Shown here: one piece after another, positions 1,298-50,378 of the stretch
Position numbering within the stretch: position 1 is the stretch's first letter
Layout: the number at the start of each line of letters is the position of its first letter
Origin: Escherichia coli
GTDB taxonomy: Bacteria > Pseudomonadota > Gammaproteobacteria > Enterobacterales > Enterobacteriaceae
DNA length: 64,000 nt
Strand: one strand, 5' to 3'
NCBI RefSeq assembly: GCF_017348835.2
Contig: NZ_CP071375.1
The notes under the pieces: model-generated
Told to the model about the DNA's origin: nothing
The model's database searches: none
The model's input: only the letters and a program-made list of their open reading frames with translations
Made by a program: the position numbers and the translations under genes

Positions 1298-1820
1298 GGT
1301 CTGCCTGATGTTTGTGGAATCGAGGGGCATAGTATACCTGAAGCAGGGTAGGGATGTTTTACGAAAGTTGTCGCGATGTTGACAAGAAGAGAATGGAAGA
1401 GAGGCCAGGACATCTTTTTAATAGAAACAGCAATAATTTTATATTCACTGAAAATATTTTTAATCTTTATTTATAGCTATTGGTTATTATTCTTTGGAGT
1501 TTGGTTGCGCTGCTATAAATTGAATAATTAAAACTTTGTTGCATATTCATAGGATATTTATCTGGTTTGTGTTTGTGATATTTATTATGCGAATGTTTCA
1601 AAAATAAAATTATCTGCAACATGTTGAAATACTATGCTTTTATGAATTTGATGCGTGTTTTTCTCCATAAATTATATATGTCCACATTCGGACTTAGGGG
1701 AAAGAATAATTGAACCATTCGTCTGTAACGCAGCATAATCGTTAGCGCGAAACATAAGATGTTTTCTATGCATTGATAATTGATGGATCAACTTATTACG
1801 TCCCTGAGGAGGGATGACAA

Positions 1821-4796
<2,976 letters not shown>

Positions 4797-18818: not shown

Positions 18819-18961
18819 TTCCTCGCCTTCCCCTTGAACGGGAGGGCATTTTTCTGAAATATCCTCTCTTTAACCCATAATAATATTTCCTTTGCTGCGA
18901 TTTTTTCAATTTCCGATATATTCATAATTCATCAAGGTTGATATAAATATCATTGAAGATT

Positions 18962-21241
18962 ATGAATAGAATTAATATATTGGTCATCTGTATGGACGTA
19001 TTTTTTATGACTGGCAATGCATGTGCCACAGAGTGGATCAGTAGCGAGGACCTTATCACCTCTGACTTTCATCTTATGACGGCAGATGAGCGCAACGTGG
19101 TTAAAGCGGCAACCGACGATAGTATGGAAGCTGCTTATATGCTAAAAGATAATATCCGCTGGTATTATCATAATGGTGACCTATCATTACCCGCTAACTT
19201 CAGCAATCAAAATAAACTGGTGGTGAACGGTAATTTAACGATTTCCGGCGATTATGATGATTATCTGTCAGGTAATGGTCATCTGATTGTATTAGGTAAT
19301 GTTATTGTCGATAACTTTATTAATCATGATTTCGCGTATGTCAAAGGACAGATGACAGCGAAAGGTTTAGTTTATGCTGATTACAATGATCATAACTTTG
19401 AAGTGATGAAGGGAATTAGTGCGCGAGGCATTATTGTTTCCGATAAAGCAACGCAATTTGAAGTCATTAAAGCTGAATTTTATATCAATGAAGATGGAAG
19501 TGGTGAAGGATATAACTGGGATGAGAATATTCAAAAAGCCTATTCACTGGTGACTGCCGATCTTTATGATCACACTGAAATCGAAACCGATAACATTTCC
19601 AATGCGTATCCTGACTATGATAGCGTCGCAGACAACATCGTTCAGGGTTTACCGCTTTTTCGAGATAAAGCCGCTCCTGAAATTAATGAGAAATTAAAAT
19701 GGATTGAAACGGGGAAACTCGATAATTTCCCAGCGAATAAAATAAAGCATCAAGATCCACTGGTGGCACGTTTTCTGACTCATACAGAGAGTTTATCACC
19801 CGCCGTTATGCTGCAACTGTTACAGCACCCCGATGACCAGACGCGTGAATCGATGGCGCAGTCCTGGCCCGCTCAACAGATGCATTTGCTTACCGATGAA
19901 TTAATTAAAGATGAGGCTGTTGCCAGAGGGCTGGTTAAAAACAGTAATATTTCCGCCGATGTGAATAAAAAATTAATGTCTGTACCCGTCGAGAGCGTAC
20001 AGCTGGAGCAGGCCAGACAGGATAATCTTTCTCCAGATATTGTTGCGTCGTTAAGTCATAGCCCCTTTCTCAGTGTACGCAAGACATTACTCAGCCATTA
20101 CGATTACGCCTGGCTGGTTCCGACTGCAGTGGCCGATGAGTTGATAAATAACGAAGACCCGGAGTTACGTGAAAGAATTACCGGAGCAGATTTAACCGCA
20201 CAACAAGCAGTGATGTTGAGTAAAGATAAATCACTGAAAGTTCGTGAAGCATTAGCCCGGACGCTTACTGAATTAAAAATTACCAAACTGTCAGCAACCC
20301 TGCGTACAGAGGATATTGAACGTATCGCAGAACAAATGTATCTGGATAATAAAGAAAATAAAAATATCGTAAAGGCGTTATTGATAGCGTTGCCGGAGAT
20401 GCGTCAACTGTCTCTGGCAAAAGAAGATGTGCACAATTTGCGCGAAGGTGCGCGTTATCTGACATCGAGGGAAGTGATTAGTTATCTACTGACTCAGCAT
20501 GATATTCCCACCGTCTGGGGTGAGCTGGCACGCGATAAATTATTGCCGCTGGAATATAAGAAACAATTATGGCAACGCACATTAAATTTAATGATGAGCA
20601 AACGGCAAGAAGATCAAGAGCAAGCCTACGAAGTACAGCTGGCGCTGATTGATAATGGTGTTGTTGACGAAGAGATGTTAAATAATGCCATTGATTTACT
20701 GGTTGATTTACCCGCTGAATACCGCTATCGAATGCGTAACCAATTATTTGATAATAAAGATTTATCTTCCGGAATTATCAACAAACTCGATCAACAGTAT
20801 CGCTTCAACTCTGACTGGGCGCTGGCTGTTGTCAGTCTGAAAAATAGCACCCGTAGGCAAAGTGAAAGAGGATTACACCGCTGGAACAGTGAGGATAGCG
20901 ATATTTTTGCGGAACTGGCGACGATAAAAGATAAATCAGATGATGAATGGTGGCGTGCATTGCTGCAAAGTCGCAATGATCATTTGCGCCAAACGGCATT
21001 ACGCAACGCACATACCCCGGCGTCGTTGTTAATGACATTGACTGAGCCTCAGGATCGGTCGCTGGCTATTAATAATCCACAGCTGGCTGCCGATGTGAAA
21101 ACGGCGTGGTTAAAAGAGGATCCATCATTACTCTTATTTGTCGATCAACCCGATCTTTCGCAGTTACGTGATTTAGTGAAAACCGGGGCAACGCGGAAAA
21201 TTCGCAGTGAAGCGCGTCACCGGCTTGAGGAAAAACAATGA
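18962..21241 (+). CDS. Hypothetical large repeat protein (about 759 aa): hydrophobic N-terminus, beta-rich Asn/Gly/Asp region, C-terminal HEAT/LRV-like alpha-helical repeats
   Basis: Long ORF in an AT-rich stretch; ATG at 18962 (ORF track gives TTG at 18953); N-terminus [22 protein letters not shown]; repeated L..L..HPD/SP/DP...R/V...L blocks in the C-terminal two thirds; 4-bp overlap with the next ORF. Confidence 0.8.
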
Positions 21242-21693
21242 CACAACGTCCATGGAGCAAGTTACAGCGGGAGATCTATGACTTACTGACGCCAACGATC
21301 AACCTGCAAATTCACTGTACCCGTTATCCCATGCGCAGCCAAAATGGTGGAAGCACCGATTTACCGCGTTATTGGATCACGTTGGATAAAAACGTGATCT
21401 GGGATTACCCGAAAGACTTTATTGCAGGTAACGGTGGAGTGCGTAATTTTCACGGTGAAACTTGCTGGTATCCTTACCTGACGGATATTTGTTCAATTTC
21501 TGATTTATTGCGTGAATATATTGATACCCCAAAAGCGGAGCTGTTAACAAAACAATTTACCAGCGATAAATGGGGGTTAGTGAATATTCTGCGTGCTGCT
21601 GACAGGCGAATAGGGATGAGGCGATTAGATCAGTTACGGCGTAAAACGCATAATATTGCTGCGCTAAAAATTATTGCCCGCCGTAGCGAATAA
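21238..21693 (+). CDS. Hypothetical 151-aa protein, translationally coupled to the upstream repeat protein
   Basis: ATGA start/stop overlap with the preceding ORF; no signal peptide; followed by a REP element. Confidence 0.7.
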
Positions 21694-43778: not shown

Positions 43779-44750
43779 GTGGCACAGGAATATACTGTTG
43801 AACAACTAAACCACGGCCGTAAAGTCTATGACTTTATGCGCTGGGACTACTGGGCTTTCGGCATCTCTGGTCTGCTGTTAATCGCCGCTATCGTTATTAT
43901 GGGCGTGCGCGGCTTTAACTGGGGGCTGGATTTTACCGGTGGTACGGTTATTGAAATTACGCTCGAAAAACCGGCTGAAATTGACGTAATGCGTGATGCA
44001 TTGCAAAAAGCCGGTTTTGAAGAGCCGATGCTGCAAAACTTTGGTAGCAGCCACGACATCATGGTCCGTATGCCGCCTGCTGACGGCGAAACCGGCGGTC
44101 AGGTGCTGGGCAGCCAGGTTCTGAAGGTGATTAACGAATCCACCAATCAGAATGCGGCAGTGAAGCGTATTGAGTTCGTCGGTCCGAGCGTGGGGGCAGA
44201 CCTTGCGCAAACCGGTGCGATGGCGTTGATGGCGGCGCTGCTGTCTATCCTCGTGTACGTAGGTTTCCGCTTTGAGTGGCGACTGGCGGCAGGGGTGGTT
44301 ATTGCGCTGGCGCACGACGTTATCATTACGCTGGGTATTTTGTCGTTATTCCATATCGAGATTGACCTGACCATTGTGGCATCGTTGATGTCGGTTATCG
44401 GTTACTCGCTTAACGACAGTATCGTGGTATCGGACCGTATTCGTGAAAACTTCCGCAAGATCCGTCGCGGTACGCCTTACGAAATCTTTAACGTGTCCTT
44501 GACCCAGACGCTGCACCGTACCTTGATCACATCCGGTACTACCTTGATGGTTATCCTGATGCTGTATCTCTTCGGTGGTCCGGTACTGGAAGGCTTCTCG
44601 CTGACCATGCTTATCGGTGTTTCCATCGGCACTGCATCTTCCATCTACGTAGCATCTGCGTTGGCTCTGAAACTGGGTATGAAGCGCGAACACATGTTGC
44701 AGCAGAAAGTGGAAAAAGAAGGGGCGGATCAGCCGTCAATTCTGCCGTAA
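43779..44750 (+). CDS. secF: Protein translocase subunit SecF
   Basis: GTG start at (M)[18 protein letters not shown] (323 aa). Confidence 0.93.
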
Positions 44751-44773
44751 TGGTGTTTTAAATCCGTTCTGTT

Positions 44774-44810
44774 AAAAAAACCGTGGCGTATTTGCGCTGC
44801 GGTTTTTTTT
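44774..44810 (+). terminator. Rho-independent terminator after secF
   Basis: A-run, hairpin AACCGTGGCG...GCGCTGCGGTT, then T8. Confidence 0.7.
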
Positions 44811-44870
44811 GCCTGTTTCACAGGCAACTGAATACGGTTTGGTTGTAGAAAGCGTTCTGACATATACTTT

Positions 44871-44887
44871 GTATTAATAGTTAATAC
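44871..44887 (+). promoter_or_regulatory. Perfect palindrome (candidate antitoxin operator) in the parD promoter region
   Basis: GTATTAA-TAG-TTAATAC about 14 bp upstream of the parD start, next to the SD GGAG. Confidence 0.5.
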
Positions 44888-44900
44888 CTGGAGATCGCTT

Positions 44901-45131
44901 ATGCGCAAAATTACCTCAGTAAGCGTTGGCGAACAATTAGATAGTTTTATTACCCGGATGGTCCAGTCTGGTCGTTATGGCTCGGCCAGTGAAGTAATGC
45001 GTTCGGCACTTCGTCTATTGGAACAACAGGAATCCAGGGATGAAGCTGTCAGAAATGCTGTTATTGAAGGTCTTGAGAGCGGTGAAAGTTCGATGACGCT
45101 TCGTGATATCGCAGCAGAAAGGAAGCAATGA
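44901..45131 (+). CDS. parD: ParD-like RHH antitoxin (COG3609-type), C-terminus replaced by an IS629 end (last 4 codons lost, stop supplied by the IS terminus)
   Basis: SVSVGEQLDSFITRMVQSGRYGSASEVMRSALRLLEQQE...GLESGES matches the ParD/CopG-like antitoxin pattern; stop TGA at 45129-45131 is the first 3 nt of the IS inverted repeat. Confidence 0.8.
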   Translation: MRKITSVSVGEQLDSFITRMVQSGRYGSASEVMRSALRLLEQQESRDEAVRNAVIEGLESGESSMTLRDIAAERKQ

Positions 45132-45155
45132 ACCGCCCCGGGTTTCCTGGAGAGT
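45129..45155. repeat. IS629 copy A terminal inverted repeat (right end)
   Basis: TGAACCGCCCCGGGTTTCCTGGAGAGT. Confidence 0.85.
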
Positions 45156-45170
45156 GTTTTATCTGTGAAC

Positions 45171-46058
45171 TCAGGCTGCCAGATCATTATTTCCGATGGA
45201 AGCATAATAAGCTTTTTCTGCTTCTGCCGGAGGAATATGGCCCAGCCTTTCCAGCAATCGTCGATTGTTATACCAGTCCACCCACGTGAGTGTGGCCAGT
45301 TCCACTTCTGTCCGGTTTTTCCAGCTCTTACGGTGTATTACCTCCGCTTTGTAAAGACCATTGATGCTCTCAGCCATCGCGTTGTCATACGAGTCGCCAG
45401 TACTCCCTGTTGATGCCAGTAATCCGGCTTCCTTAAGCCGCTGCGTGTAGGCCAGCGATACATACTGAGAACCTTTATCACTGTGATGGATTGTGCCGGA
45501 CGGCCGACGGGCCCACAACGCCTGCTCCAGTGCATCCAGCACGAATGTTGTTTCCATGGATGATGAGACCTGCCATCCCACGATGTATCCGGCGAACACA
45601 TCAATGATGAACGCCACATAAACGAAGCCCTGCCATGTGCTTACCCAGGTAAAATCAGCCACCCACAACTGGTCTGGACGTTCTGCCACGAACTGACGGT
45701 TTACGCGGTCGCATGCGGCAACGGCTTTCCGGCTGACGGTAGTGCGGACCTTTTTACCCCGGAGAACACCGGCAAGTCCCATAACTGCCATGAGACGTGC
45801 CACAGTGCATCTGGCCACTCTGATACCTTCCCGTAACAACTGACGCCAGACTTTACGCACACCGTATACCTGGTGATTTTCATCGTATACGCGCTGTATC
45901 TCTTTCTTCAGCCAGTCATCGTGCTGCGCACGGGCACTGCGTTTATCCGGATGATGTCGCTGTTGCTGACAATGGTAATACGTTGACGGGGCAATATGCA
46001 GTTCGCTGCATACCGGTCCGCCCCCGTACTGCTCACGCAGCTTATCCAGCAGTGGCAT
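45171..46058 (-). CDS. IS629 transposase OrfB (DDE catalytic domain)
   Basis: 295 aa in -1 frame relative to orfA; integrase-core DDE region (ADFTWV...HHSDKGSQY...DNAMAES). Confidence 0.9.
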   Translation of the reverse strand: MPLLDKLREQYGGGPVCSELHIAPSTYYHCQQQRHHPDKRSARAQHDDWLKKEIQRVYDENHQVYGVRKVWRQLLREGIRVARCTVARLMAVMGLAGVLRGKKVRTTVSRKAVAACDRVNRQFVAERPDQLWVADFTWVSTWQGFVYVAFIIDVFAGYIVGWQVSSSMETTFVLDALEQALWARRPSGTIHHSDKGSQYVSLAYTQRLKEAGLLASTGSTGDSYDNAMAESINGLYKAEVIHRKSWKNRTEVELATLTWVDWYNNRRLLERLGHIPPAEAEKAYYASIGNNDLAA

Positions 46059-46384
46059 TATTTTTTCCAGAGGCGGTCGAACTCCGCCTTCGCAAAATAA
46101 GCGGAAGCCTGGCGAAGGATATCGTTACTGCGGCGCAGTTCACGATTTTCACGTTCCAGCTCTTTCAGACGCTGACGTTCAGCGGTGGTGAGTCCACCAT
46201 CACCACTCCCGGTATCCCGCTCATGCTGGCGAACCCAGACACGCAGAGTCTCCGGCGTACAGCCAATCTTTGGGGCAATGGAACAAATTGCCGTCCACTG
46301 TGAGTCATATTCATCCTGACTTTCCAGAACCATACGAATCGCCCGCTGACGGACTTCGGGGGAAAAACGAGTATTTTTAGTCAT
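46058..46384 (-). CDS. IS629 transposase OrfA (HTH)
   Basis: 108 aa [23 protein letters not shown]...; IS3-family OrfA with leucine-zipper-like C-terminus. Confidence 0.9.
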
Positions 46385-46411
46385 CCTGTTTACCTCTTTC
46401 TCAGGGAGTTT

Positions 46412-46438
46412 AGTCTCCAGGATTTCCGGGGCGGTTCA
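46412..46438. repeat. IS629 copy A terminal inverted repeat (left end)
   Basis: Reverse complement reads TGAACCGCCCCGGAAATCCTGGAGACT. Confidence 0.85.
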
Positions 46439-46449
46439 GCAAAAACATC

Positions 46450-46731
46450 GTGTATAAGCTTAGCGGAAAAGCTGTTGAAGATTTCAGAGGGATCTATGAC
46501 TACACGCTGGGAAAGTTTGGTGAGGAGCAGGCGGATCGCTATACCGACTCTCTCGGCACTTTTCTGGATACACTCTCTCAAATGCCCGAGATAGGGCAAG
46601 ACTATGATGCGATTCCAGAGGTAAAGAAGATCGCATTTAGGTTTCACACTGTTTATTACGTTATAAGAGTCGATGACATTCTCATTGCGCGCATTCTTCA
46701 TCAGTTGATGGAACCTCGCCGTCACTGGTAA
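46450..46731 (+). CDS. parE: ParE-like toxin (RelE/ParE superfamily), intact but separated from parD by IS629
   Basis: GTG start; YKLSGKAVEDFRGIYDYT...FHTVYYVIRVDDILIARILHQLMEP matches conserved ParE N- and C-terminal motifs. Confidence 0.8.
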   Translation: MYKLSGKAVEDFRGIYDYTLGKFGEEQADRYTDSLGTFLDTLSQMPEIGQDYDAIPEVKKIAFRFHTVYYVIRVDDILIARILHQLMEPRRHW

Positions 46732-46818
46732 TGTGAGAATTTCTTGACTCAGGATTGCGAAAATCCCCGCATCTTGGGAAACTGCGCGTAACCCTACATT
46801 TCATCCAGGTAACTTTTC

Positions 46819-47166
46819 ATGGCTATCATCCCAAAAAACTATGCGCGGTTAGAAAGCGGCTATCGCGAAAAAGCATTAAAAATATATCCGTGGGTCTGCG
46901 GTCGCTGTTCCCGCGAGTTTGTTTATTCCAACCTGCGTGAACTTACTGTTCACCACATTGATCACGACCATACCAATAACCCGGAAGATGGCAGTAACTG
47001 GGAATTGCTTTGTCTCTATTGCCACGATCATGAGCATTCGAAATATACCGAAGCGGATCAGTATGGTACGACCGTTATCGCAGGGGAAGATGCGCAGAAA
47101 GATGTCGGTGAAGCGAAGTACAACCCATTCGCTGACCTGAAAGCGATGATGAACAAGAAGAAGTGA
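46819..47166 (+). CDS. yajD: HNH-nuclease-family protein YajD
   Basis: 115 aa with HNH/Zn motif (CGRCSREF...HHIDHDHTNNPEDGSNWELLCLYCHDHEH). Confidence 0.9.
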   Translation: MAIIPKNYARLESGYREKALKIYPWVCGRCSREFVYSNLRELTVHHIDHDHTNNPEDGSNWELLCLYCHDHEHSKYTEADQYGTTVIAGEDAQKDVGEAKYNPFADLKAMMNKKK

Positions 47167-48525: not shown

Positions 48526-48819
48526 TTACTGCATAACAGGTTGAATGTCGTGGATACGTACAAAGCCTAACTGATCCACAGAAATCCCCTTTAACTGTAA
48601 CGGAATATCAACATCGCTGGGGGCGAGGACGCTGGCAGGGGCATTAATCAATTGATTCTGCACATTGATTTCCTGAAAGTTGTCTATTGTTCCCTGAATT
48701 TGCCCATATTCAACGGTTCCGCTGAATGCGGGCAAGGGATCATTCGACTCGCCCTGAATACGTAGCGTCAGGGTGGTGCCATCTGTATCAGGCGTAATAT
48801 TCACCAGCGACATACGTAA
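48526..48819 (-). pseudogene. yajI: yajI lipoprotein gene, C-terminal fragment (3' part of the gene split by IS629 copy B)
   Basis: Reading frame continues without a stop across the IS boundary; joins in frame with the N-terminal fragment at 50130-50378 through the duplicated TAA/Leu codon. Confidence 0.8.
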
Positions 48820-48846
48820 TGAACCGCCCCGGAAATCCTGGAGACT
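48820..48846. repeat. IS629 copy B left terminal inverted repeat
   Basis: TGAACCGCCCCGGAAATCCTGGAGACT. Confidence 0.85.
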
Positions 48847-48873
48847 AAACTCCCTGAGAAAGAGGTAAACAGG

Positions 48874-49200
48874 ATGACTAAAAATACTCGTTTTTCCCCC
48901 GAAGTCCGTCAGCGGGCGATTCGTATGGTTCTGGAAAGTCAGGATGAATATGACTCACAGTGGGCGGCAATTTGTTCCATTGCCCCAAAGATTGGCTGTA
49001 CGCCGGAGACTCTGCGTGTCTGGGTTCGCCAGCATGAGCGGGATACCGGGAGTGGTGATGGTGGACTCACCACCGCTGAACGTCAGCGTCTGAAAGAGCT
49101 GGAACGTGAAAATCGTGAACTGCGCCGCAGTAACGATATCCTTCGCCAGGCTTCCGCTTATTTTGCGAAGGCGGAGTTCGACCGCCTCTGGAAAAAATAA
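48874..49200 (+). CDS. IS629 transposase OrfA
   Basis: 108 aa; differs from copy A OrfA at one residue (A vs T); ends in an A6 run next to the orfB start. Confidence 0.9.
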
Positions 49201-50087
49201 TGCCACTGCTGGATAAGCTGCGTGAGCAGTACGGGGTCGGACCGGTATGCAGCGAACTGCATATTGCCCCGTCAACGTATTACCATTGTCAGCAACAGCG
49301 ACATCATCCGGATAAACGCAGTGCCCGTGCGCAGCACGATGACTGGCTGAAGAAAGAGATACAGCGCGTATACGATGAAAATCACCAGGTATACGGTGTG
49401 CGTAAAGTCTGGCGTCAGTTGTTACGGGAAGGTATCAGAGTGGCCAGATGCACTGTGGCACGTCTCATGGCAGTTATGGGACTTGCCGGTGTTCTCCGGG
49501 GTAAAAAGGTCCGCACTACCGTCAGCCGGAAAGCCGTTGCCGCATGCGACCGCGTAAACCGTCAGTTCGTGGCAGAACGTCCAGACCAGTTGTGGGTGGC
49601 TGATTTTACCTGGGTAAGCACATGGCAGGGCTTCGTTTATGTGGCGTTCATCATTGATGTGTTCGCCGGATACATCGTGGGATGGCAGGTCTCATCATCC
49701 ATGGAAACAACATTCGTGCTGGATGCACTGGAGCAGGCGTTGTGGGCCCGTCGGCCGTCCGGCACAATCCATCACAGTGATAAAGGTTCTCAGTATGTAT
49801 CGCTGGCCTACACGCAGCGGCTTAAGGAAGCCGGATTACTGGCATCAACAGGGAGTACTGGCGACTCGTATGACAACGCGATGGCGGAGAGCATCAATGG
49901 TCTTTACAAAGCGGAGGTAATACACCGTAAGAGCTGGAAAAACCGTGCAGAAGTGGAACTGGCCACACTCACGTGGGTGGACTGGTATAACAATCGACGA
50001 TTGCTGGAAAGGCTGGGCCATATTCCTCCGGCAGAAGCAGAAAAAGCTTATTATGCTTCCATCGGAAATAATGATCTGGCAGCCTGA
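49200..50087 (+). CDS. IS629 transposase OrfB (DDE)
   Basis: 295 aa; -1 frame relative to orfA and open upstream of its ATG; 3 aa differences from copy A (V13G, A/T near the C-terminus, R/L). Confidence 0.9.
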   Translation: MPLLDKLREQYGVGPVCSELHIAPSTYYHCQQQRHHPDKRSARAQHDDWLKKEIQRVYDENHQVYGVRKVWRQLLREGIRVARCTVARLMAVMGLAGVLRGKKVRTTVSRKAVAACDRVNRQFVAERPDQLWVADFTWVSTWQGFVYVAFIIDVFAGYIVGWQVSSSMETTFVLDALEQALWARRPSGTIHHSDKGSQYVSLAYTQRLKEAGLLASTGSTGDSYDNAMAESINGLYKAEVIHRKSWKNRAEVELATLTWVDWYNNRRLLERLGHIPPAEAEKAYYASIGNNDLAA

Positions 50088-50102
50088 GTTCACAGATAAA
50101 AC

Positions 50103-50129
50103 ACTCTCCAGGAAACCCGGGGCGGTTCA
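50103..50129. repeat. IS629 copy B right terminal inverted repeat
   Basis: ACTCTCCAGGAAACCCGGGGCGGTTCA. Confidence 0.85.
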
Positions 50130-50378
50130 TAAAGTACCGATCTGGCTTTCCAGTCTTGCCGGTGTTTTCGCTTCAGGCAGAAGGTAAACCCCACTGCTGG
50201 ATTTTGCATTCAGCCTGTTTTGCTGAGTGATTTTGACCGTTTCTTTATTGAGTTGCGTCATCTCCTGGTTCAGCGTGCTGACGCTGTGTTTCATCTGTCG
50301 CACTTCGCTTTGCTGCACACAGGCGCTAAGGCTGAACAGGCTTCCCAGCAGGAGCAGTCGAAAAACGTTAGTATTCAT
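50130..50378 (-). pseudogene. yajI: yajI lipoprotein gene, N-terminal fragment (signal peptide plus lipobox LSAC), truncated by IS629 copy B
   Basis: MNTNVFRLLLLGSLFSLSAC...; stop codon is supplied by the IS terminus (TGA at 50127-50129 on the minus strand). Confidence 0.8.

Follow-up and report, generated by a model that had tools for sequence, protein, structure and literature searches.

An IS629 insertion in parD separates the genes of a chromosomal parDE toxin–antitoxin pair in Escherichia coli PE164

INTRODUCTION

IS629 of EHEC and Shigella, together with its isoforms IS1203 and IS3411, is a 1310-bp element with termini that begin TGAACCGCCCCGG. Its orfA and orfB are connected by a −1 frameshift, and in IS3-family transposases the ALIL pseudoknot is the stimulator of such programmed frameshifting. 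The polarity of IS insertions upon operons is textbook knowledge. The primers specific for IS629, and its habit of duplicating 3–4 bp of the target, are given in the published IS629 survey (PMC3271280).

The ParD and ParE families include the Vibrio cholerae pair VcParD2–ParE2 (PDB 7B22 and 7R5A) and the Caulobacter pair ParD1–ParE1 (3KXE). In VcParD2 the helix of residues 41–60 initiates the binding of ParE, and the last residues 79–81 are treated as flexible, the ParE-bound chains included (PMC10776004; bioRxiv 10.1101/2025.07.24.666505). The entire C-terminus of VcParD2 is required for full neutralization (bioRxiv 10.1101/2025.07.24.666505). Autoregulation is known for antitoxins of the ParD family (PMC10776004). 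In E. coli a parDE pair forms a small chromosomal toxin–antitoxin (TA) islet between secF and yajD (secF–parDE–yajD). The literature that we examined contains neither a functional study of this ParDE pair nor an experimental report of toxicity or gyrase poisoning by its ParE. Those reviews on ParE systems that we consulted discuss only the three-component PaaR–PaaA–ParE systems.

We have analyzed this islet in E. coli PE164, an isolate from pig, using a stretch of 64 000 nt of its chromosome that we call the window. A 1310-bp isoform of IS629 has transposed into codon 77 of parD, producing a 4-bp GCAA duplication. The insertion is real but ordinary, since the mobile element is common and the strain is full of its copies, and the locus shows a chromosomal TA module decaying through IS activity in a routine way, with parts and mechanism that are already known. 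We consider it likely that the insertion was a neutral hit by which the synthesis of ParE has been strongly cut, while the shortened antitoxin ParD′ is still made.

RESULTS

The inserted element is an isoform of IS629. Its terminal inverted repeats, of the TG...CA type, are imperfect, with 25 nt that are 88% complementary (TGAACCGCCCCGGGTTTCCTGGAGA and TCTCCAGGATTTCCGGGGCGGTTCA), and it is oriented so that the orfB-side end (IRR) adjoins parD′ and the orfA-side end (IRL) adjoins parE. The DDE transposase, encoded in two overlapping ORFs, matches the profile NF033516 (transpos_IS3) at 307.9 bits (cut-off 160), and is annotated by PGAP with a programmed frameshift. The two primers published as specific for IS629 have perfect matches in the element, at 46159–46180 and 45400–45419. 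The name IS629 is supported by these primers; plasmid records searched for copies bearing that name yielded ‘IS3 family transposase’ names alone, which is how the database copies are labeled. Copies on the chromosomes of O103:H2 strains, and on those of many other E. coli as well as on plasmids, are 98.9–99.8% identical to the element. Length, termini, orfA/orfB frameshift, pseudoknot, size of target duplication and primer matches are shared with IS629 of EHEC and Shigella, and the one difference noted is the site of insertion. The names secF and yajD are absent from the main text of the IS629 survey (PMC3271280). The boundaries, inverted repeats, duplication, IS-free relatives and family profiles all agree with the original prediction, made from the sequence, of an IS629-like element lying inside parDE.

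Table 1. Features of the parDE locus of E. coli PE164, in coordinates of the window
Feature	Position	Strand	Description
Candidate parD promoter	44839–44868	+	−35 TTGGTT 44839–44844, 18-nt spacer, −10 TATACT 44863–44868
Perfect palindrome	44871–44887		GTATTAA-N3-TTAATAC, just 3′ of the −10
parD′ (truncated)	44901–45131	+	ORF, 76 aa versus 80; RefSeq WP_153645598.1
Target site duplication, left copy	45125–45128		GCAA, 4 bp
IS629 isoform (IS3 family)	45129–46438	− (transposase strand)	1310 bp; inverted repeats, ORFs, profile, primers
orfB	45171–46058	−	ORF, 295 aa
ALIL pseudoknot RF01497	45987–46103	−	Rfam 116.1 bits, gathering score 50
orfA	46058–46384	−	ORF, 108 aa
Target site duplication, right copy	46439–46442		GCAA, 4 bp
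parE	46450–46731	+	ORF, GTG start, 93 aa

Could the IS have been misplaced in the assembly of PE164? Nothing points that way beyond the general risk that comes with repeats, while a full-length element is flanked by a perfect 4-bp target duplication, and the identical left junction is found in at least two drafts, the independent assemblies GCA_034296255.1 and GCA_019365205.1. We give an artefact next to no chance. Nor is the junction the product of recombination or inversion between copies of the element. A second, inverted copy of IS629 lies at 48820–50129 in yajI, 2.4 kb away, but each copy retains its own matching duplication (GCAA and TAA), showing that there has been no exchange between them.

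The state of the locus before the insertion can be reconstructed. It had been predicted that removal of the IS and one copy of GCAA would restore a ParD ending ...AAERKQKHRV, with a stop codon overlapping the parE GTG by 8 nt (GTGTATAA). Such excision in silico gives exactly this arrangement, and it exists in nature: over 757 nt the reconstruction agrees at every position (100% identity) with E. coli F2_81, whose locus has no IS and for which RefSeq gives an 80-aa ParD (WP_001226938.1) and a 93-aa ParE (WP_053883267.1) with the 8-nt overlap. In the IS-free relatives ParD ends ...KQKHRV and parE lies directly downstream, rather than ParD ending at ...RKQ ahead of a different gene. The same architecture, overlap included, is present in O157:H7 and other lineages. 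Compared with the O157:H7 pair (UniRef name PARD_ECO57), which occupies the same chromosomal position, residues 1–76 of ParD are identical and ParE differs in one residue, E25D; ParE is identical to that of F2_81, with which it shares its accession. The PE164 operon differs from that of O157:H7 in being split by the IS, in the absence of KHRV from ParD and in the absence of the native upstream sequence from parE.

How general is the insertion? Among 5426 complete genomes of E. coli, 425 have the islet intact, O157:H7 included, and PE164 is the one with the insertion. The 76-aa ParD′ product is present on 19 contigs. Exact look-up of a protein misleads at contig ends: four Logan contigs with an exact 76-aa ParD′ end at ...GCAAAA, and are IS-free sequence cut by the end of the contig, which leaves the true junction to the two NCBI drafts. 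The insertion is stably inherited, its junction being common to several isolates.

The antitoxin gene has been left almost whole. Its TGA stop codon is formed by the first three nucleotides of the IS, as had been recognized, and from the toxin-binding tail ParD′ lacks no more than the four C-terminal residues, KHRV, in accord with the predicted loss of four codons. Upstream, parD′ retains its promoter region, a palindromic operator candidate and a GGAG Shine–Dalgarno sequence at 44890–44893. In a scan of the window with a position weight matrix (PWM) the candidate promoter scores 8.92, within the top 0.011% of all sites. A strict sigma-70 consensus scan of 44700–46900 returned no promoter, that of parD included; its stringency left it uninformative, and the PWM scan took its place. 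The palindrome is a candidate operator for ParD, a ribbon–helix–helix protein, in view of the autoregulation exerted by antitoxins of its family. The N-terminal ribbon–helix–helix domain is present in ParD′, which matches TIGR02606 with 95.7 bits (cut-off 46.2) and PF03693 with E = 1.9e-22. VcParD2 is the closest solved homologue of ParD; both are 80 aa in length, and align without gaps over residues 1–69 (7B22, E = 2.9e-19). Given the position of the ParE-binding helix and the flexible end of VcParD2, ParD(1–76) is likely to be still competent as an antitoxin, but full neutralization by VcParD2 needs the entire C-terminus, which makes it uncertain what the lack of KHRV entails.

The toxin gene is full length, as had been claimed. 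Its 93-aa product matches PF05016 over positions 1–88 of 89 (E = 1e-14), and so both members of the pair belong to the expected families by profile. Relatives of ParE in the PDB are 7YCS, 8C24, 3KXE and 7R5A; it aligns end to end with the first three, at modest identity (E about 1e-7 to 3e-4). The pair belongs to the same Pfam families as VcParD2–ParE2 and ParD1–ParE1. A ribbon–helix–helix antitoxin with a disordered tail around the toxin, and a toxin that poisons gyrase, would be expected by analogy, and from the complexes 7R5A, 3KXE and 8C24 we infer that ParD neutralizes ParE by direct binding. Both reading frames are near-intact, which is a coincidence of the landing site.

Is ParE nevertheless an irrelevant toxin, attenuated or non-toxic in E. 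coli, such that the insertion was neutral whatever its expression? Such behavior has been reported for several ParE proteins encoded on chromosomes. The potency of ParE proteins varies widely, and some are non-toxic when over-expressed (PMC6813445; PMC10886550). By manual comparison of the ‘K-F-G’ motif of this ParE with ‘R-W-G’ of VcParE2, a phenylalanine apparently replaces the key Trp25, a position at which only tyrosine retained full toxicity in VcParE2 (bioRxiv 10.1101/2025.07.24.666505). No NCBIfam model matches ParE at E ≤ 1e-3. Yet the Pfam match covers the full length of the protein and the operon is intact in those 425 complete genomes. The pair also looks to be under constraint across diverged E. 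coli alleles, with all six nucleotide changes in parD and four of five in parE synonymous at the most distant E. coli locus checked. An irrelevant toxin is unlikely in our estimation.

What the insertion has changed is the context of parE. The predicted displacement by 1.3 kb is borne out: the 1310-bp element stands between parD′ and parE, which now lies 1314 bp 3′ of its native upstream sequence, with 11 nt of native DNA left before it. As in other polar IS insertions and IS-mediated TA decay, promoter and coupling site no longer adjoin the downstream gene, while the upstream reading frame finishes in the IS terminus, and we see no difference of principle. The gene had been described as stripped of both promoter and Shine–Dalgarno sequence. 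The loss of the promoter and of translational coupling is the clearer part, that of the Shine–Dalgarno the less certain one. The native AGGAAG is indeed at 45120–45125, with an anti-Shine–Dalgarno energy of −5.6 kcal/mol, but in the native arrangement it ends 10 nt before the GTG, a poor spacing. The 8-nt overlap points to coupling as the main native mechanism for translation of parE. The IS end in turn brings a G-rich run, GGGGCGG, of comparable complementarity (−7.1 kcal/mol), 15 nt 5′ of the GTG.

From the arrangement of the locus, parE would be deprived of the sole promoter in evidence and uncoupled from the translation of parD. Transcription could arrive at the gene only by way of 1.3 kb of C-rich RNA that is not translated and is antisense to the transposase, and this RNA would be a good substrate for Rho-dependent polarity; the C/G ratio of the plus-strand IS RNA is 1.5–2.0 in many segments of 78 nt. 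Given the loss of promoter and coupling, and the Rho-prone RNA between the genes, parE is probably strongly down-regulated. A strong fall in ParE synthesis while production of ParD′ continues would be the ‘safe’ order of TA decay, and this could explain why the insertion was tolerated and inherited.

The alternative is a pair that is split yet working, in which parE is transcribed across the IS from a parD promoter that may be de-repressed, or else from some weak promoter facing outward near the orfA-side IS end, its GTG start served by the G-rich IS terminus, and its product neutralized in trans by ParD(1–76), with both ratio and regulation altered. There is no strong plus-strand terminator within the IS, where terminator-like hairpins are weak and as numerous as expected by chance. 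If ParE is missing as co-repressor, the parD promoter could become de-repressed and read-through could rise, and the complementarity of GGGGCGG to the anti-Shine–Dalgarno makes it possible that such a transcript is translatable, though 15 nt separate this run from the GTG. The long C-rich untranslated RNA favors Rho termination before parE is reached. A promoter-like sequence, TTTACC-16-TAGTCT, is found at 46389–46416, 34 nt from the IS end, but it is no better than chance for 1.3 kb. On the plus strand of the IS, the highest PWM score of any promoter-like site is 6.34, which is reached by 0.07% of sites, so that several would be expected by chance in this length; ranked against the whole window, the scan reveals no convincing outward promoter in the IS end. 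ParD′ keeps residues 1–76, spanning the equivalent of the primary ParE-binding helix of VcParD2, and the parE reading frame is unchanged relative to intact operons, but this would be equally expected after a recent insertion. The original proposal of a toxin gene either silenced or relying on read-out from the IS end, with the toxin–antitoxin stoichiometry uncoupled in both cases, is a reasonable one. On balance we regard a split but functional pair as doubtful, if quite conceivable, and prefer to view parE as largely silenced.

A more active role for the locus can be imagined. An IS-excision enhancer in EHEC promotes precise excision of IS elements. If the parD promoter, de-repressed by the loss of ParE, gave a long RNA that covered the entire transposase gene in antisense and continued into parE, and if excision of the IS restored the operon, then TA autoregulation would be tied to the silencing of an IS copy with a low-level, IS-dependent supply of toxin, and precise excision would be a reversible switch of TA activity. 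We think this very unlikely.

DISCUSSION

Might the insertion have been selected, either for a changed TA output (relief from the cost of ParE, or rewired defence or persistence) or for the antisense taming of the IS? Several isolates share the junction, consistent with stable inheritance, and the parD promoter is directed antisense into the transposase gene. Yet this is one of 5426 complete genomes, and independent recurrence was not seen among them. Moreover the PE164 chromosome contains about 30 matches to the IS (32 matching places), and the neighboring yajI has also been struck, as expected for random insertions carried in a clone. An adaptive origin is highly improbable, and the insertion is most likely a neutral event in a lineage undergoing IS629 expansion.

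The locus has little importance beyond PE164. It is nevertheless a clean natural example of the disabling of a TA module without the death of the cell, which is explained if the antitoxin gene still has its promoter and the toxin gene has been severed from the one it used. The naturally truncated ParD(1–76) and the promoterless parE allele are possible controls for work on the secF–yajD ParDE pair. For annotation, the 76-aa ‘ParD’ WP_153645598.1 is an antitoxin cut short by an IS insertion rather than a natural variant. The components of the locus were already annotated in the same way by RefSeq.

The insertion and the operon that it interrupts

The secF-parDE-yajD islet is a toxin-antitoxin locus within the core block tgt-yajC-secD-secF ... 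yajD-tsx-yajI-nrdR, and here it is split by an IS629 element. The window matches the chromosome of E. coli PE164 (NZ_CP114128.1) in reverse orientation, with 100% identity over the queried region; the strain record gives an isolate from pig, diarrhoea and blood, Nanjing. The shortened antitoxin gene (parD′), the IS and parE are already annotated correctly in RefSeq.

Features of the interrupted parDE locus
Feature	Position	Description
secF	end at 44750	
parD′ ORF	44901-45131	76 aa
IS element	45129-46438	1310 bp
parE ORF	46450-46731	GTG start; 93 aa
yajD	start at 46819	

The element has terminal inverted repeats of 25 nt that are 88% complementary, and lies between direct copies of GCAA (45125-45128 and 46439-46442). 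Its first three bases are the TGA that terminates parD′. Removal in silico of the IS and one GCAA generates an 80-aa protein ending ...AAERKQKHRV, with the parD TAA overlapping the parE GTG by 8 nt, and this 757-nt reconstruction shows 100% identity to the locus as it occurs naturally in the IS-free strain F2_81. In RefSeq that locus encodes an 80-aa ParD-family antitoxin (WP_001226938.1), and the 93-aa RelE/ParE-family toxin (WP_053883267.1) is common to F2_81 and PE164. The same parD-parE architecture is present in O157:H7, in a more distant lineage (96% nucleotide identity) and in seven further assemblies; in K-12 the secF-yajD site is empty. Boundaries, repeats, excision and the F2_81 allele all bear out the operon reconstruction of the original prediction, whose coordinates are all correct, and IS-free relatives keep parDE rather than a parD ending naturally at ...RKQ ahead of a different gene.

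The IS minus strand codes for orfA (108 aa) and orfB (295 aa), the latter scoring 307.9 bits against the NCBIfam IS3 transposase model (cut-off 160), and contains an ALIL frameshift pseudoknot at 45987-46103 (Rfam, 116 bits). Exact matches to the IS629-specific primers of Rump et al. (after Ooka et al.) lie at 46159-46180 and 45400-45419, and IS629 is reported to make 3-4 bp duplications (PMC3271280). Copies that are 98.9-99.8% identical occur in O103:H2 genomes and on numerous other chromosomes and plasmids of E. coli.

The antitoxin matches TIGR02606 (95.7 bits, cut-off 46.2) and PF03693 (1.9e-22), and the intact protein has the UniRef name PARD_ECO57. The nearest relative with a solved structure is V. 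cholerae ParD2 (E = 2.9e-19), likewise 80 aa long. The toxin covers positions 1-88 of 89 of PF05016 (E = 1e-14) and can be aligned from one end to the other with ParE chains 7YCS, 8C24 and 3KXE; it matched no NCBIfam model. The profiles thus uphold the proposed ParD and ParE assignments, including the toxin-family homology of parE.

Expression of parE and function of the shortened antitoxin

The best promoter-like site upstream of parD (TTGGTT-18-TATACT, 44839-44868) falls in the top 0.011% of window sites, and is directly followed by a perfect palindrome, GTATTAA-N3-TTAATAC (44871-44887). GGAG lies seven nt ahead of the parD ATG. All three elements remain with parD′, leaving parE only 11 nt of native upstream sequence. 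No promoter-like site on the parE-directed strand of the IS rises above chance expectation, the best being TTTACC-16-TAGTCT (46389-46416, score 6.34). On balance neither promoter nor coupling appears to be left to parE, and its expression is most likely strongly reduced.

It had been proposed that parE was stripped of both promoter and Shine-Dalgarno sequence. Promoter loss stands, as deduced from this layout; the second part holds less clearly. The end of the native AGGAAG is 10 nt away from the parE GTG, a poor spacing, so that translational coupling through the 8-nt overlap probably mattered more. The IS terminus brings GGGGCGG, with similar anti-SD complementarity, but 15 nt from the GTG.

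Residual parE expression could arise by read-through of the IS. Intrinsic terminator-like hairpins in its plus strand are weak and no commoner than in shuffled sequence, by a scan whose limit is shown by the secF terminator hairpin that it overlooked (44768-44810). Beyond the parD′ stop the plus-strand IS RNA is untranslated, and it contains numerous stretches rich in C and poor in G, making Rho-dependent polarity plausible. A 53-aa ORF (45128-45289, plus strand), whose ATG overlaps the new parD′ stop (ATGA), extends into the element on the strand opposite orfB. This is almost certainly a chance reading frame; were re-initiation to lead to its translation, the first 160 nt of a read-through transcript would be protected from Rho. 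The secF hairpin itself (AAAAAAACCGTGGCG...CGCTGCGGTTTTTTTT) has a bidirectional look, with an A-run and a T-run flanking its two sides, and escaped the scan because its stem contains two internal mismatches.

ParD′ retains the complete ribbon-helix-helix domain and tail residues 41-76. In V. cholerae ParD2, helix 41-60 initiates binding, S76 points away from the toxin, and residues 79-81 stay flexible even when the chain has the toxin bound (PMC10776004; bioRxiv 10.1101/2025.07.24.666505); complete neutralisation needs the full C-terminal domain (bioRxiv 10.1101/2025.07.24.666505). By this analogy the effect of losing KHRV is probably mild. That the insertion has survived and been inherited would fit either a low production of ParE or its continued neutralisation by ParD′. 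In the most distant locus the changes are synonymous at 6/6 positions in parD and 4/5 in parE. Both genes look constrained across diverged alleles, so that in E. coli at large the intact module probably works. PE164 parE shows no change relative to the intact allele, as would fit a recent insertion.

Distribution and IS629 expansion

How widespread is the interrupted locus? The islet is essentially intact in 425 of 5426 complete E. coli genomes, among which PE164 alone has the interrupted form. The 76-aa product is on record for 19 contigs, and in the drafts GCA_034296255.1 and GCA_019365205.1 the parD′-IS junction was verified as identical; the insertion is not private to one assembly. Four Logan contigs from the same look-up were rejected as contig-end artefacts of the IS-free allele.

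The query matches at 32 places on the PE164 chromosome, and almost every one is an IS copy. A second full IS629 copy (48820-50129, plus strand, 1310 bp) lies inside yajI, a DUF3251 lipoprotein gene. It differs from the first at 5/1310 positions, has the opposite orientation and carries its own 3-bp TAA duplication (48817-48819 and 50130-50132). The intervening 2381 bp (parE, yajD, tsx and the 3′ part of yajI) is thus bracketed by inverted copies, a composite-transposon-like or invertible arrangement. Since matching duplications are kept at each copy, no recombination between them has occurred. The picture is of a clone with expanded IS629 that took a single hit at this locus and has passed the insertion on. 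A reversible toxin-antitoxin switch gated by the IS, in which read-through from the promoter runs antisense to the transposase, is very improbable.

IS629, the ParD and ParE families, the chromosomal islet and polar IS insertions are all already known; the sole new fact is the insertion site. The main text of the IS629 survey (PMC3271280) makes no mention of it, and a literature search found no link of IS629 to this locus. The observation is correct, and the insertion itself is an ordinary event.

Other accessory genes in the window

Further accessory genes were seen (PE164 record coordinates in brackets). Between acpH and malZ, which are presumably adjacent in K-12, lies a 1.5-kb ‘hypothetical protein’ gene annotated as a frameshifted pseudogene, at 37075-38591 (3780901-3782417); this would then be another small accessory islet in decay. 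A 523-aa pentapeptide-repeat protein is encoded between yajO and pgpA at 54808-56379 (3763113-3764684), a position where K-12 presumably has no such gene. The genes for a 759-aa DUF2773-domain protein and a 151-aa hypothetical protein between rdgC and ppnP, at 18960-21691 (3797801-3800532), are an accessory pair. Lastly, iprA and hemB have an intact autotransporter gene (984 aa) between them at 1819-4773 (3814719-3817673), where K-12 presumably has the disrupted yaiT pseudogene.
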